From IMG/VR virus record IMGVR_UViG_643348545_000010: a stretch of DNA of 16,207 bases, one strand, 5' to 3'. The DNA is from a virus (taxonomy: Duplodnaviria; Heunggongvirae; Uroviricota; Caudoviricetes). The notes beneath the pieces were generated by a model. The model ran no database searches and was not told the DNA's origin. It saw only the letters and a list, made by a program, of their open reading frames with translations. Both the position numbers and the translations under genes were made by a program. Of the stretch, positions 1,198 through 7,752 are shown one piece after another. Position 1 is the first letter of the stretch. Every line of letters starts with the position of its first letter.

Positions 1198-2859
1198 TTA
1201 CACCCCGCTAAATTCTTCCAGTTTCTGGCGGTGGCTGTCGCTTATATCAAAAGCAAAATCCTCATGCTCTGCCTGGAATGTACCAAACGCCATCAGCGCC
1301 GCCACGCTCGGGTCTATCTTGTTCGGTGATTTTTTCTTGTTCGGCTTGATATTGGCGTTCGCGTCACTCTGCATCACGACGTTACTCATCGACCAGGACA
1401 ACACCGGATCGCCACGATGCACAATCACCCTGCGGTTAACAAAAACTTCGAACGATTTCGCCGCCGGACTGAATCTGAGGTAGGTTTGCGGGAACGGCTC
1501 CACCTCAAAACCTGCCCCCTGTAATTGCGTTCTGAGATGCGTGGCGTTCCACGTATCAAAGCCCACCAGCCTGATATTAAATTTCTCCGCGTCCTGCATG
1601 ATGTCATCTCTGATCCGGTCGTAATCAATGCAGTCGCCAGGCGTTGTGCGTATCCAGCCTGCTTTAGCCCACTGACGATAGATGGCGCGGTTTTTATTGG
1701 CGGGGTTCTGTAGCTGAAATTCCGGCAGATAGTGACGGGAAACCAGCATAATGGTTTTACCGACCGGAAAGGCATAGCACACGCTGGAAATATCGCTGGT
1801 TGATGATAAGTCCAGCCCCGCGTAACACTCCTGGCCGTGTAAATCTTCCTCCGTGAACGTTCCGGCACACTCAGCCCATGCGCCGTTACCCATCCACGGG
1901 GTAGCCCCCTGGCACCAGATATTAAATCGCTTTGTCATCATCTCCACCCACTGCGACGGAATACCCCGCGCTTTCTGGATGGTTGAGGCCAGTTTTTCAC
2001 GATCCACGGAAACATCAATATTAGGGTTCGCCTTTATCCACATCGCCGGATCATCAACCTCGTTTTCGTCGTCCAGTTCGTAAATCAGTACAAAAATTGA
2101 ATCGTTGACCTCTTCGCCGTCCAGGATCTGGCAGCAATAATCATAGTGCTGCTTACAGGCTGAAACGACGTTACTGCCTGATGTGGTAATAGCAAATAAC
2201 AGCCCTTCGGGACGTGCGCCCATCCCCAGCTCAAGCGCGGAATAAACGCCGTTATCGGGGTGCAAGTGGTATTCGTCCACGATGGAAAGGCTGGGGTTTG
2301 TTCCCTCGATGGTTGCCGCTTTTGCTGCCAGCGGCTTTAACAGGCTGTTGCTTTTCGGGTGTATCACCTTATGCGCCTGAATATTCACCCGCCTGCGTAA
2401 CGGTCGGGATAAAAGGCACATCTGACGCGCATCATCAAAGACGATCCGCGCCTGGTCACGGCTCACCGCTGCGGTGTAAATATCCTGCTGACCGTTCTCC
2501 ATAATCAGAAACCAGTTAGCCAGAATCGCGGCGGTCGTGGATTTCGCATTTTTGCGCGGCACTTCGATAAAGGCGCTCGTGTATTTGCGCCGTCCGGTGG
2601 CCTTAACCTTAAAGCCGAGGATGCACGCAAAGGCGAACTGCTGCCACGGCTCCAGCTCAATGGGTCTGCCACGCATCGGCCCTTTTACGTGCGGGCACAC
2701 CCTGGAAAAGGCAATAAACCGCTCCACAACCTCACGATCGAACGTGTAAAGGGGGCTTTCAAGGTCCGAAAAGTACCGTTTAACGGCCTGTTTCAGCCGT
2801 TTACAGGCCGGAATTTTGCCCGTTTTTACGTCTTCTGCGTACTTATTCCAGGCGGTCAA
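1198..2859 (-). CDS. terL: Terminase large subunit (Terminase_1 / HK97-like)
   Basis: 553-aa ORF with typical TerL ATPase and nuclease architecture. Apparent TTG start at 2859 with GAGGA 7 nt upstream, overlapping the terS 3' end by 17 nt. Confidence 0.88.
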   Translation of the reverse strand: MTAWNKYAEDVKTGKIPACKRLKQAVKRYFSDLESPLYTFDREVVERFIAFSRVCPHVKGPMRGRPIELEPWQQFAFACILGFKVKATGRRKYTSAFIEVPRKNAKSTTAAILANWFLIMENGQQDIYTAAVSRDQARIVFDDARQMCLLSRPLRRRVNIQAHKVIHPKSNSLLKPLAAKAATIEGTNPSLSIVDEYHLHPDNGVYSALELGMGARPEGLLFAITTSGSNVVSACKQHYDYCCQILDGEEVNDSIFVLIYELDDENEVDDPAMWIKANPNIDVSVDREKLASTIQKARGIPSQWVEMMTKRFNIWCQGATPWMGNGAWAECAGTFTEEDLHGQECYAGLDLSSTSDISSVCYAFPVGKTIMLVSRHYLPEFQLQNPANKNRAIYRQWAKAGWIRTTPGDCIDYDRIRDDIMQDAEKFNIRLVGFDTWNATHLRTQLQGAGFEVEPFPQTYLRFSPAAKSFEVFVNRRVIVHRGDPVLSWSMSNVVMQSDANANIKPNKKKSPNKIDPSVAALMAFGTFQAEHEDFAFDISDSHRQKLEEFSGV

Positions 2860-3199
2860 GCTCGTCCTCTTCTTCTGTTTCCGGTGGATTTTTACGGCGG
2901 CTTATCGGGTCAAAACCGAGCAAGGAGGCCATTTTTATCATCACCCTTTCAGCGTCGGATTTTGCGCTTAATGCGGGGTTTCTGCTCTCGCCGCCCTGAC
3001 TGTTAACAATGCTGAACCCGCGCGCCGCAAGGTCTGCAACGGCTTTCCGGTAAATGGAGTAGTTGACACAATACAGTTCCAGATTGCTCCAGTCGGCGGG
3101 GGTCAGGTCTCCCCGTTCCGCAAGCTGCCGCGATTTTTCCCGCCACTGCTTCACGGCGATGTCATCCAGGTAGGCGGGGGCTTTCGGTGGTCTTGCCAT
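2843..3199 (-). CDS. terS: Terminase small subunit (P27-family-like)
   Basis: 118 aa, MARPPKAPAYLDD...WSNLELYC...GFDPISRRK, typical of P27-family TerS; sits directly upstream of terL. No obvious SD. Confidence 0.75.
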   Translation of the reverse strand: MARPPKAPAYLDDIAVKQWREKSRQLAERGDLTPADWSNLELYCVNYSIYRKAVADLAARGFSIVNSQGGESRNPALSAKSDAERVMIKMASLLGFDPISRRKNPPETEEEDELDRLE

Positions 3200-3490
3200 A
3201 CTTATTTTTTCGCCAGATTATTTTTCAAAAAATTCCCGTGCATAAAAATTTGAGGAGGCGGTCGGTGCCCGGCGGGGTCGGGTTTGTCCTGAAAACGCCC
3301 CCACCCCGTCATACAGCCTCATCAGCGATTGCGAAAACATTCCATAACCTCGCGGTCACGGTCGGTTAATCGCTTCGCTGTGATGCGTTCTGCGCGTCCT
3401 GACGCTTTATCTTTATGCCCTGTTTCCTGTGTCTTCCATGCGTCACGCTGCCTTATCAGTCCACGGATAAGGCGGTTTTGTTCCCGCTCA

Positions 3491-3928
3491 TTAATCAGCG
3501 TCATACATCCAGTTATTGCGGTTAGCGGCCCGTTCTTCCTCTTCACGAAATCCACCTGCGGCACGCTTGCTTTTTGTTGCCGGATCAAGCCATTTCGTTT
3601 TCTGGTTATGGCACGCCTGACACAATGGCTGATGGTTCCATTCGGGCCAGAAGAGAACATCATCACCGCCATCGATGGGGATAATGTGATCCACCACCAC
3701 GGCGGGCGTATATATCCCCTTCTCAAGGCATCGCACGCATAACGGGTTTTTACTCAGATACATGGCGCGGTATTTGTCCCACTGTCTGGAATATCCACGC
3801 GCGCGGCGGTGTCCTCGTCTGGCATCCTCTGCACGCCATGCCGCCCGCCTGTGCTCCTCACACTTGCCGGATTTAACGCGCCTGTTACAGCCTGGTTCTG
3901 TGCATCGTCTTAATGGTTGCCACGGCAT
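3491..3928 (-). CDS. HNH endonuclease (packaging-associated)
   Basis: 145 aa with Cys/His-rich motifs (CxxC...HxxxH...CxxCH); GGGGG SD; position next to terS as in HK97-like cos phages. Confidence 0.8.
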   Translation of the reverse strand: MPWQPLRRCTEPGCNRRVKSGKCEEHRRAAWRAEDARRGHRRARGYSRQWDKYRAMYLSKNPLCVRCLEKGIYTPAVVVDHIIPIDGGDDVLFWPEWNHQPLCQACHNQKTKWLDPATKSKRAAGGFREEEERAANRNNWMYDAD

Positions 3929-5768: not shown

Positions 5769-6341
5769 TCACACCCCCGCTAAATCCGCCCACCAGCGGC
5801 GATTATCCGCACGCGGCATTTTTTCGGGGTGCTGCTCATACAGGGAACGGCGGGCCAGCTCCACGCCGGAATCGGGGTAAGCCGGTACCGATGTAACGGT
5901 AATTTCGTACAGTTCCGCCACCAGCACGGTGCGCACGCATGGATCTGTTGTGGTATCCCATACATCCTTACGGGAGCGAAAGCCAAAGCTCATCCCCGAG
6001 ATGTCCCCACGCTTAACCAGTTCGATAACGTCGCGCCCTGTACTGGTATCCGGTGGGGTCAGTTCAAAGCGTAACCCTGTTTCGTCCTCTTCCAGTTTCA
6101 GCGTGCCGGAACGGGTGCGCCCCAGTAACATGCTGTGGTCATGCTCATACAGGCCGCGAACGTCATTACCCGCCGCAAGCCATTCAGTAAACGCCCCCCG
6201 CTGGAATTTTTCGTAAAACTCACCCCATAACAGTTCTGAAAGCTTATCCCAGCGAACAACGTAGCCCGTCAGCGTACCGGCTCCGCTGGTGGTGATTTCC
6301 GATGACCGGATTTCCATACTCTTCATAATTTTTTCACCCAT
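5769..6341 (-). CDS. Prohead maturation protease, HK97 family (S78-like)
   Basis: 190 aa, ...GYVVRWDKLSE...LYEHD...GDISGMSFGF... resembles HK97 prohead protease. The true start may be the internal ATG at 6326. Confidence 0.8.
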   Translation of the reverse strand: MGEKIMKSMEIRSSEITTSGAGTLTGYVVRWDKLSELLWGEFYEKFQRGAFTEWLAAGNDVRGLYEHDHSMLLGRTRSGTLKLEEDETGLRFELTPPDTSTGRDVIELVKRGDISGMSFGFRSRKDVWDTTTDPCVRTVLVAELYEITVTSVPAYPDSGVELARRSLYEQHPEKMPRADNRRWWADLAGV

Positions 6342-6351
6342 AAAACACTAA

Positions 6352-6369
6352 AGGGGCTTTTAAGCCCCT
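6352..6369 (-). terminator. Hairpin between capsid and protease genes; likely attenuator
   Basis: Perfect stem AGGGGCTT / AAGCCCCT followed on the minus strand by a U-rich tract (UUAGUGUUUUAU). Confidence 0.45.
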
Positions 6370-6380
6370 TCTGTATGCTG

Positions 6381-7538
6381 TTAATCGTCGTCCTGTGGCA
6401 GTTCCAGAATCTTGATCGCGTTCGAATCCACCACGCCACCGCCTAAATATTTCTGCGTGAAAATTTTGATGAAGCCCGGCTCTGTGAGGTTGTCCGGTCT
6501 GGTGCGAACACCTGTTTCGTGATCAACAATGTAGTAACCGCGTTTGAAGTCACCCAGGGCAATAACGTTATCAGGCATAAACTCCAGATATTCGACCGGA
6601 AGGCCCAGCAACGTATCAGGATCACCCGCCTGTAAACGGTCGCGCCAGATGTAATCACCGTTCGCGTTCTTCACCTTCTGAAGTTTTGCCGCCGTCGTGG
6701 AGTTAACCACCCAGACCGCGTTTTTGCGGTATTTTTTACGTAATGCAAATTTCAGGTCGATCAGCGGGTCCGCAGATGTCCACGCCAGAGATTCGGAAGG
6801 TTTAATTACCTGCAACGTACCAAAATCACGCTCTTTGTCGTTCTTCTCTGCACGGGGTACGGATAAAAAGCCTTTTGCTTTTTTGTCACCGTCGCCCACA
6901 ACCAGATCGCTTTCTTCGGTTTCCGTGAAGGTGTCGCCAATCTCGCCCGTCAGCCATGAAAGGATGTCCACATCGGAAAAATCCACGATTTCCTGTGTGG
7001 TGCGCGGGTACGCATAGACCGGATACAGCTTAATGCTCACCTCGTTAATCTGCGGGGTGCTGGTCTGTTCGCGTGCCTTACCCTCTTCACCGTGGTTAAC
7101 GGTCGCACCGCCAGCGGAAACAAGCTGCTTAAACTCGTTGCTGCTGATTTTCTTCACGGTACAGATGCGGCGCATGGTGGATTCATCCGCCAGCATTCGC
7201 ATGATTTCGGTGTTCAGTTCGGGGATAACGGTATAACCACCATCAGCGGGAACGCCTGTACTTAATGCGCGGGTTTCACCCGTCAGAATGTAGTTTCGTA
7301 GTTCTGCGGGGTCAGTGGTCTGACTGCTTTTACCTGGCTTGCTGCGCTCTTCGTCTGCAATGGCTTCAAGGCGGGAAATGTCTTTATCGAGGGATTCAGC
7401 TTTAGCGCGTAATTCGTCAAATTTTGCGCCCTCAGCATCGTTAAGACTGCGGTTTTCTTTTTCAGCGTTCTCCAGCATGTCGCGCATCTGATTTTTAATG
7501 GCGGTTTTCTGCTGGCGCAATTCGATTATTCTCGGCAT
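6381..7538 (-). CDS. Major capsid protein, HK97 fold
   Basis: Start taken at ATG 7538 (MPRIIELRQQ...), giving a coiled-coil N-terminal domain typical of HK97-family capsids. The ORF track extends to 7586, but that extension is the terminator hairpin. Confidence 0.88.
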   Translation of the reverse strand: MPRIIELRQQKTAIKNQMRDMLENAEKENRSLNDAEGAKFDELRAKAESLDKDISRLEAIADEERSKPGKSSQTTDPAELRNYILTGETRALSTGVPADGGYTVIPELNTEIMRMLADESTMRRICTVKKISSNEFKQLVSAGGATVNHGEEGKAREQTSTPQINEVSIKLYPVYAYPRTTQEIVDFSDVDILSWLTGEIGDTFTETEESDLVVGDGDKKAKGFLSVPRAEKNDKERDFGTLQVIKPSESLAWTSADPLIDLKFALRKKYRKNAVWVVNSTTAAKLQKVKNANGDYIWRDRLQAGDPDTLLGLPVEYLEFMPDNVIALGDFKRGYYIVDHETGVRTRPDNLTEPGFIKIFTQKYLGGGVVDSNAIKILELPQDDD

Positions 7539-7627: not shown

Positions 7628-7675
7628 TTTTCCCGCCTGGTAATGAATATTGGCGAGCACATTAACAGGCGGGAA
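7628..7675. promoter_or_regulatory. 17-bp inverted repeat (16/17 match) with 14-bp spacer in the packaging-operon leader
   Basis: TTTCCCGCCTGTTAATG ... CATTACCAGGCGGGAAA on the minus strand, about 100 bp upstream of the capsid start. Confidence 0.45.
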
Positions 7676-7752
7676 AGTGGCCCCAGCGTCCTGGCACCAC
7701 GGGCGAGAATAATCATGATTCAGTTCGGGTAAAATATGCCGATCCGCTCAGT

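Follow-up and report, generated by a model that had tools for sequence, protein, structure and literature searches.

This study concerns an inverted repeat ahead of the major capsid gene of a phage satellite. The window, i.e. the whole 16,207-nucleotide stretch analyzed (IMG/VR record IMGVR_UViG_643348545_000010), is, as judged from its gene content, a capsid-forming phage-inducible chromosomal island (cf-PICI) of Escherichia coli, with its genes on the minus strand. These include genes for an integrase (14990-16207), a 62-amino acid protein of the AlpA family (14427-14615) and a D5-type primase (9436-11184), besides those for SSB, PerC-like proteins, prohead protease, portal, TerS and TerL. 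The closest annotated relative is an island located between phoQ and roxA, with a cf-PICI gene set that includes the head-tail connector and HNH genes; the same layout is found in the cf-PICI EcCIEDL933 (bioRxiv 10.1101/2022.09.08.507074). Of 5,426 complete E. coli genomes, 425 contain an island of the window type. The repeat lies in a 260-nt non-coding stretch that extends from the terminator of an upstream accessory gene (7819-7802) to the capsid ATG (7538). Homology between islands begins just downstream of this terminator, many of the E. coli matches ending at window position 7824. In the direction of transcription, the locus comprises the following features.

7819-7802, minus strand: intrinsic terminator of the upstream accessory gene, which insulates the packaging promoter.

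7791-7753, minus strand: upstream control region, not part of the RNA, made of a box, TTTTGTAAATTATT (7791-7778), and three TTGTTC repeats.

7733-7706, minus strand: predicted sigma70-type promoter of the capsid/packaging operon, with -35 sequence TTTACC (7733-7728), a 16-nt spacer containing a conserved TCATG, and -10 sequence TATTCT (7711-7706).

7700-7677, minus strand: stem-loop 1 (SL1), the 5′-terminal stem-loop, GUGGUGCCAGGACGCUGGGGCCAC, with outer stem GUGG/CCAC, inner stem CCAG/CUGG and an invariant GACG loop.

7676-7629, minus strand: stem-loop 2 (SL2), the element under study, an RNA helix with 16 of 17 pairs formed, identified by repeat search, folding, shuffling and the finding of a homologous, covarying helix in relatives.

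7575-7539, minus strand: leader terminator and ribosome-site hairpin, made of GUCCUGGAGUU (7575-7565), a loop (7564-7557), AACCCCAGGAC (7556-7546) and a run of seven U residues (7545-7539).

7538-6381, minus strand: major capsid gene (HK97 type), the first gene of the operon behind the leader.

The leader is thus approximately 160 nt long; SL2 directly adjoins SL1 (there being no linker in the window) and is separated from the downstream hairpin by about 50 nt. On the plus strand, the two arms of the repeat are TTTCCCGCCTGGTAATG (7629-7645) and CATTAACAGGCGGGAAA (7660-7676), each of 17 nt, complementary at 16 of the 17 positions (94%) and separated by a 14-nt spacer. Read on the minus strand, SL2 consists of a 5′ arm, UUUCCCGCCUGUUAAUG (7676-7660), a loop, UGCUCGCCAAUAUU (7659-7646), and a 3′ arm, CAUUACCAGGCGGGAAA (7645-7629). 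An initial annotation of the window had described this same repeat, with the same complementarity and spacer and in minus-strand orientation; its identity stands, while its position, given as 7628-7675, is off by one nucleotide. The element indeed lies about 100 bp upstream of the capsid gene, the ATG (7538-7536) being 91 nt downstream of the repeat, and falls between the TTGTTC repeats (7778-7753) and the leader terminator, as had been noted.

The same annotation judged the repeat too long and too perfect to be due to chance, and the data bear this out. A scan of the full 16.2 kilobase (kb) window for 17-nt arms with at most one mismatch and a spacer of 3 to 60 nt returned the SL2 repeat and no other; only one in 200 dinucleotide-preserving shuffles yielded any such repeat (mean 0.035). 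The arm sequence has no second occurrence in the window (0.06 expected), and complements of the loop sought elsewhere in the window occur at chance level only. When folded as RNA, the 56-nt SL2 segment reaches -23.5 kcal/mol, as opposed to -9.8 ± 2.6 for shuffled sequences (z = -5.3; none of 200 shuffles as good). SL2 was also considered as an intrinsic terminator and rejected, since no U tract follows the stem on either strand and the terminator scan called it on neither. The last three letters of the minus-strand stem are AAA (7631-7629), and AACGAACGG comes next; in plus-strand orientation the stem runs into GTGGCCCC. In relatives, the hairpin at the SL2 position is followed by C-rich sequence.

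Comparison with related islands shows that the helix is conserved and its sequence is not. The first comparison covered regions upstream of the capsid gene in Rosenbergiella, Citrobacter and Erwinia genomes and in IMG/VR contigs. In all three genera a hairpin occupies the equivalent position; its arms are unrelated in sequence, and the SL1 preceding it is identical across the three. An IMG/VR search by the SL1 motif then gave at least 120 contigs with 77 distinct downstream sequences, and in nearly all of these loci a hairpin begins 0 to 4 nt after SL1. Stems as different as GGCCGUUUAA/UUAAACGGCC, GUCCACCUGG/CCAGGUGGAC, GCCGCCUGAC/GUCGGGCGGC, CCCGCCCCG/CGGGGGCGGG and GAUCCCCCGG/CCGGGGGAUC are found at this place. 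Overall span varies from 36 to 63 nt; the arms are roughly 11 to 45 nt apart, and the interval often contains one or two nested hairpins. Hence the conservation that the initial annotation had proposed to look for in related islands exists at the level of pairing, which is kept in more than 100 of them, but not at that of arm sequence.

The covariation holds up in alignments of different kinds. In an alignment of 26 diverse leaders made with MAFFT only, seven of the eight SL2 pairs have changed on both sides and 96% of the cells are paired, against 37 to 51% when the partner strand is slid by one to three columns. A covariance-model alignment of 84 distinct leaders has compensatory changes at all eight basal pairs, with 97.7% of cells paired and 29 stem haplotypes; RNAalifold, unaided, predicts the identical helix. 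The model finds exactly one copy of the element per island, always ahead of the capsid gene, and minimum free energy folds of 38 leader classes display SL1, SL2 and a third, downstream stem-loop (SL3) in nearly all. Within the E. coli clade, 2 of the 34 arm columns vary, as compared to 3 of the 14 loop columns. Cells with G.U or U.G outnumber those with A.C or C.A in the SL2 helix by 26 to 4, a tilt rather than a proof as these cells are not independent events. Together with a G.U/A-U variant of the terminator hairpin found in several E. coli islands (AACUUCAGGAC), the G.U excess indicates that it is the capsid-sense RNA that folds. We regard it as highly probable that SL2 forms one of the helices of a leader RNA, strongly covarying and hitherto undescribed, in front of the cf-PICI capsid operon.

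These observations bear directly on the possibility, raised at the outset, that the palindrome is an operator bound by a dimeric regulator (AlpA, a ribbon-helix-helix protein or other) acting on the packaging promoter. A long, near-perfect palindrome close to a promoter invites such a reading. Yet the arms, with their 29 haplotypes, are not conserved while SL1, the promoter and the capsid gene are; the spacer ranges from about 11 to about 45 nt, often with nested hairpins; the site is present in a single copy and would fall inside the predicted transcript, at about +25 to +72; and the G.U bias favors one strand. We consider an operator very improbable and discard this part of the initial proposal: most likely, the repeat functions at the level of RNA rather than as a DNA site for a protein.

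The leader RNA is predicted to begin with SL1. Alignment of 119 distinct upstream sequences, anchored on the first G of SL1, revealed a -10 region with no variation at three positions (T at -11, A at -10, T at -6) and with T in 112 of 119 at position -9, giving the sigma70 signature TATNYT. In the -35 region, TTT at positions -33 to -31 is found in 116 to 118 of the 119 sequences and is followed by A/T and C; this yields TTTAC with a 16-nt spacer. A promoter scan independently called the homologous TTTACA-16-TATGTT in locus L072, with just one other promoter-like site in 6.2 kb; in the scan of the window, the window's own hexamers fell below the tool's threshold. As the -10 sequence ends 6 nt before SL1, the transcript start is predicted at about 7700 ± 2, within the opening nucleotides of SL1. 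Conservation is also unusually high in the 3′ half of the spacer, TTTTYCATG, in most types examined. Further upstream, the TTGTTC direct repeats (7778-7773, 7768-7763 and 7758-7753) recur with an exact 10-bp period and constitute a presumed activator site. The box preceding them is kept in most cf-PICI types examined, only loosely so in the Gilliamella type, and other leader types have TTACCC-type repeats in place of TTGTTC, as if the repeats co-varied with activator specificity. An antisense RNA opposite the leader was considered and rejected, no promoter-like or terminator-like site being found on the plus strand across the leader.

SL1 is far more constant than SL2. It exists as three haplotypes with compensatory changes in both stems: the outer stem is either GUGGC/GCCAC or GUGAC/GUCAC, and the inner stem is CUCA/UGAG, CUCC/GGAG or CCAG/CUGG. 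A G.U pair is present at the base of SL1 in nine sequences. Such a pattern, with SL1 and its GACG loop held constant and SL2 retaining only its shape, could denote a platform on which a trans-acting protein reads the SL1 loop, SL2 serving as scaffold, in order to control translation, termination or stability. The protein could be encoded by the island or by a helper phage, or be a host factor such as a chaperone of the ProQ/FinO type; a related E. coli cf-PICI (L073) does encode a ProQ/FinO-family protein (6320-6862), two genes upstream of a leader of the same type. In addition, a UCAGACAG-like motif recurs in many SL2 apical loops and in a hairpin of a different leader type. Against this, no candidate protein is conserved beside the leader, the upstream genes forming a variable accessory region; the SL2 loop of the window lacks the recurring motif, and the loop varies within the clade. 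A platform of this kind is unlikely on present evidence, and it would be compatible with, rather than exclusive of, the attenuator model described below. As for the recurring motif itself, UCAGAC(A/G)G is seen in the apical loops of many SL2 variants (L097, L103, L136, L187 and others) and, in the L227 leader, a type without SL1, in the loop of an unrelated hairpin, GGCGGUAGUUCUCAGACAGCUACCGC, whose 5′ arm is the exact ops core, GGCGGTAG.

At the other end of the leader, the stem of the terminator hairpin has 11 bp with one mismatch, and an AGGA Shine-Dalgarno sequence (7550-7547) is contained in its 3′ arm, just ahead of the ATG (7538-7536). The hairpin is kept across the window clade and in L060, where the upper stem has different sequences. 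The final hairpin of the commoner leader type, SL3 (GGUUUCACGU...ACGGAAACC), lacks a U tract, ends 3 to 6 nt before the ATG and contains the sole purine-rich candidate ribosome site; there is no intrinsic terminator in this leader and none obvious in the operon. What all leader types would have in common, as predicted by folding, is a hairpin closing the capsid translation start, to which the window clade adds a good intrinsic terminator. Three further readings of leader segments were examined and rejected. A leader peptide is not conserved: the 4-codon open reading frame (ORF) AUGAAAAACGGUUGA (7601-7587) has no Shine-Dalgarno sequence and is absent from L060. A boxA-like reading of the SL2 loop (UGCUC...) failed because the positions vary within the clade. 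Finally, GGCGGGAAAACG matches 7 of the 10 specified positions of the ops element recognized by RfaH but lacks the critical T6, the exact ops core occurring only in the L227 leader type.

The two ends of the leader are complementary to each other. The segments involved in the window are as follows.

7694-7686, minus strand: segment a, CCAGGACGC, the part of SL1 that is complementary to segment c.

7577-7569, minus strand: segment c, GCGUCCUGG, made up of the terminator's 5′ flank and arm, a candidate for antiterminator pairing with segment a.

Segments a and c are complementary at all nine positions (100%). The equivalent pairing between SL1 and the 5′ arm of the downstream hairpin is AGACGUGAG:UUCACGUCU in the main type and GACGGGAG:UUCCCGUC in the third, amounting to 8 to 9 bp of different sequence. 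In the third haplotype, U is replaced by G in SL1 and, correspondingly, A by C at a nucleotide that is bulged within SL3, so that SL3 itself places no constraint on this residue; 95 distinct leaders have one combination, 11 the other and none a mixed one. CACGUC in the 5′ arm of SL3 is invariant whereas its partner strand inside SL3 varies (ACG, GCG, GAG). Duplexes between SL1 and the leader tail were modestly better than those of shuffled sequences in four of five types (p = 0.002-0.036; p = 0.14 in the fifth), and when the alternative pairing was forced, SL2 remained folded.

These findings lead us to propose that the leader is a cis-acting attenuator of the capsid/packaging operon. By default, SL1, SL2 and the terminator/ribosome-site hairpin would all fold, and transcription would stop, or the ribosome site would be closed, ahead of the capsid gene. 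The alternative fold would have the apical half of SL1 paired with the 5′ arm of the downstream hairpin, preventing the hairpin from forming and freeing the ribosome site. SL2 would form in both folds as a sequence-independent architectural helix that staples the 45 to 65 nt between the competing partners, and it may stack on SL1. Being folded in both conformations would explain why selection acts on SL2 pairing and not on its sequence. The switch might be triggered by a helper-phage protein, an island protein or the state of RNA polymerase. The suggestion of the initial annotation that the repeat forms an RNA stem cooperating with the terminator is therefore upheld in part: the stem is a conserved leader RNA helix, and cooperation is plausible in that SL2 lies between SL1 and a terminator hairpin that are mutually complementary.

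A number of points weigh against this model. The alternative fold is 7 to 10 kcal/mol less stable than the default and would thus need a factor to form; in this regard, no conserved leader ORF, Rfam riboswitch or leader match, or conserved neighboring regulator was found that could provide a sensor. The covariation between SL1 and SL3 amounts to three haplotypes and two evolutionary events, and a targeted search by degenerate pattern for additional SL1 haplotypes returned only the L265 type and unrelated GC-rich chance matches. A DNA motif bound by a protein and present as two inverted copies could also account for the complementarity, the GGACG core resembling the GGGACG AlpA-binding element of Pseudomonas aeruginosa (PMC9371919). 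That likeness is itself weakened by the fact that P. aeruginosa AlpA is much larger than the 62-amino acid protein of the island and that its site lies between -35 and -10. The absence of a U tract from the downstream hairpin of the commoner leader type implies that the common denominator is sequestration of the ribosome site, not intrinsic termination. Both the promoter and the 5′ end of the transcript are predictions, and SL2's own contribution is one that we infer. Lastly, some cf-PICIs with a homologous promoter region have a short (approximately 40 nt), unstructured leader, making the element not essential to the family.

Among the loci surveyed, L222, L223, L225, L228, L229, L231, L234, as well as L237, L239, L242, L264 and L268, have short unstructured or Gilliamella-type cf-PICI leaders. 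Leaders of the Gilliamella type contain a different, 13-bp hairpin, UUAGACUGC...GCAGUCUAA, and no SL1.

The leader hairpins could alternatively affect the stability or processing of the mRNA, with SL1 and SL2 shielding it from 5′-end-dependent decay or SL2 providing an RNase III site for remodeling of the leader. Hairpins at the 5′ end are known to stabilize E. coli mRNAs such as that of ompA, and SL1 sits at the predicted 5′ end; the SL2 of the window, a 17-bp duplex with a single mismatch, approaches the length of an RNase III substrate. In most relatives, however, the uninterrupted SL2 helix has only 9 to 12 bp and then opens into a multi-branch loop, an atypical substrate for this enzyme, and simple protection would leave both the invariance of the SL1 sequence and its complementarity to the downstream hairpin unexplained. 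This makes a role in stability or processing quite unlikely. On balance, the probable explanation as a whole is that the repeat is the template of SL2 (P2) in a conserved leader of approximately 160 nt, which we infer to be an attenuator. The specific role of SL2 as the architectural helix of that attenuator is the mechanism best supported by the data, and we advance it tentatively.

The leader family is represented in well over 100 IMG/VR contigs and in genomes of Shigella, Citrobacter, Erwinia and Rosenbergiella. Rfam 15 gave no match at the leader in the window or its relatives, even at E ≤ 10 on slices of 261 to 311 nt, and the element is not mentioned in the literature covered (cf-PICI papers, the EcCIMP1 paper and full-text sequence searches). 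With neither an Rfam family nor a paper found, it is, from these comparisons, a previously uncatalogued and presumptively cis-regulatory leader RNA. A search of 50,697 phage records with blastn in distant mode found no record with the leader other than PICI-like ones, and none with the window type; at the sensitivity of blastn, relatives in true phages are thus rejected. One of the records, that of Klebsiella phage P12620-1 (L363; PQ569648.1; 106.5 kb, sparsely annotated), has a cf-PICI leader at 102124-102280 and, in its last 5 kb, a capsid-protease-portal module with this leader. The record could result from co-assembly or contain an embedded satellite.

cf-PICIs produce small capsids of their own and rely on helper phages for tails alone. 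How the capsid/packaging operon is silenced before induction and then brought to very high expression is not described in the literature searched. A covarying leader at the first nucleotides of the operon offers a concrete and easily mutated handle on its control, and in the engineering of PICI delivery particles, deleting or swapping the leader could alter particle yield. The result shifts attention from protein binding at a palindrome to the RNA level. A bolder proposal, possible though rather doubtful, is that SL1, SL2 and SL3 define a new family of cis-regulatory leader RNAs gating cf-PICI capsid production, either through a flip of SL1 upon a helper or island signal or through modification of RNA polymerase in the manner of put RNA (see below). 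If either version were true, it would be through RNA that the satellite decides whether to make capsids of its own.

Additional features were noticed in the window. An exact 23-nt direct repeat, AAAAAGCCGGATTGCTCCGGCTG, at 7798-7820 and 8161-8183 represents the same intrinsic terminator twice; the two copies flank a 363-bp cassette containing an ORF of 100 amino acids (7839-8141) without a Pfam match. The cassette looks like a moron-type accessory gene inserted along with its own terminator copy. The 39-nt gap between the capsid and protease genes contains a terminator-like hairpin on the minus strand, GAAGGGGCUUAAAAGCCCCUUU (6371-6350), with a weak U tract; it may be a partial terminator setting the capsid-to-protease ratio. 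In HK97-type systems, the cos or pac packaging signal is found beside terS, between HNH and terS. By position only, the HNH-terS region of the window, at about 2843-3928, is more than 3.7 kb from the SL2 hairpin. Upstream of the replication genes, on the minus strand of the 12309-12513 region, two Rfam matches exceed the gathering score, one to C4 antisense RNA (69.1 bits; 12396-12309) and one to its a1/b1 target (46.8 bits; 12513-12464), while an isrK-like match is below threshold. The relative L001 has an Icd-like protein and an ash-family gene annotated in this region. The island appears to carry an RNA immunity module of the P1/P7 c4-icd-ant type. Pairing of the leader with this C4-like antisense RNA is no better than that of shuffled sequences (p = 0.58).

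Among known systems, one of similar architecture is the put RNA of phage HK022, an antiterminator that needs no protein and acts through the beta′ zinc-binding domain of RNA polymerase. The putL element consists of two adjacent stem-loops, approximately 70 nt in all, starting from the first nucleotides of a sigma70 transcript and acting in cis, with terminators downstream (PMC9378689). On prediction and covariation, SL1 (24-25 nt) and SL2 (36-63 nt) likewise begin at +1. As a put-like module, they would bind the transcribing RNA polymerase and render it resistant to the leader terminator, to later terminators or to Rho, with no need for an alternative pairing. The arrangement fits, two adjacent stem-loops covering about 72 to 90 nt from the first transcript nucleotides; in the window type, an intrinsic terminator follows after about 50 nt, in addition to the terminator-like hairpin behind the capsid gene; and the extreme conservation of the SL1 sequence is expected of an RNA that contacts polymerase or a protein. 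On the other hand, a covariance model of SL1 plus SL2, run with filters off against the whole HK022 genome, had its best hit (9.7 bits) at an unrelated place and nothing at 28.2-28.3 kb, where putL lies, or after cro. Homology to putL or putR, in sequence or structure, is hence rejected. Besides, SL2, half of the module, varies freely in sequence unlike stem II of put; most relatives, the commoner leader type among them, have no leader terminator to be overcome; and a constitutive antiterminator placed right before a terminator would make the latter pointless. We hold the put-like alternative to be quite unlikely, to about the same degree as a role in stability or processing.

The locus also has features of the targets of Q- and AlpA-type antiterminators, such as PR′-tR′ of lambda and PalpB-tB of P. 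aeruginosa: a sigma70 promoter, a short untranslated leader and an intrinsic terminator before the first ORF of a late or lysis operon. In the AlpA-controlled operons of P. aeruginosa, the promoter-proximal leader terminator directly precedes the first ORF (PMC7969949). The conserved segment between -35 and -10 (TTTTYCATG) is located where the Q-binding and AlpA-binding elements (QBE and ABE) lie, and the island encodes an AlpA-family protein. This 62-amino acid protein consists of the PF05930 winged-helix domain alone, while P. aeruginosa AlpA is far larger, with residue numbering reaching at least 142 and an N-terminal ring-forming segment (PMC9371919). Unlike in Q- and AlpA-type targets, a -10-like pause element could not be discerned in the initial transcribed region. 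Moreover, conservation in the present leader resides in its RNA structure, something that Q- and AlpA-type systems can do without. A further parallel is with FinP/traJ leaders, which are served by ProQ/FinO chaperones and in which paired stem-loops of the 5′ untranslated region include the ribosome site, a FinO-family gene being located near the leader in one cf-PICI relative; the present leader differs in that no opposite-strand promoter or terminator was found and the FinO gene is absent from the window.

Finally, the attenuator model places the leader alongside classical attenuators with mutually exclusive hairpins, such as the trp and pyrBI leaders, the ribonucleic antiterminator (RAT)-terminator leaders of bgl and sac, and the alternative structures of lambda cIII. 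It shares with them a promoter-proximal position, a terminator or ribosome-site hairpin before the first gene and, further upstream, a segment complementary to the 5′ arm of the hairpin. It departs from them in doing so without a conserved leader peptide or a known ligand or RAT-type protein, in having the competing segment locked within a 5′ hairpin of its own, and in the large constant helix, SL2, that stands between the two partners.

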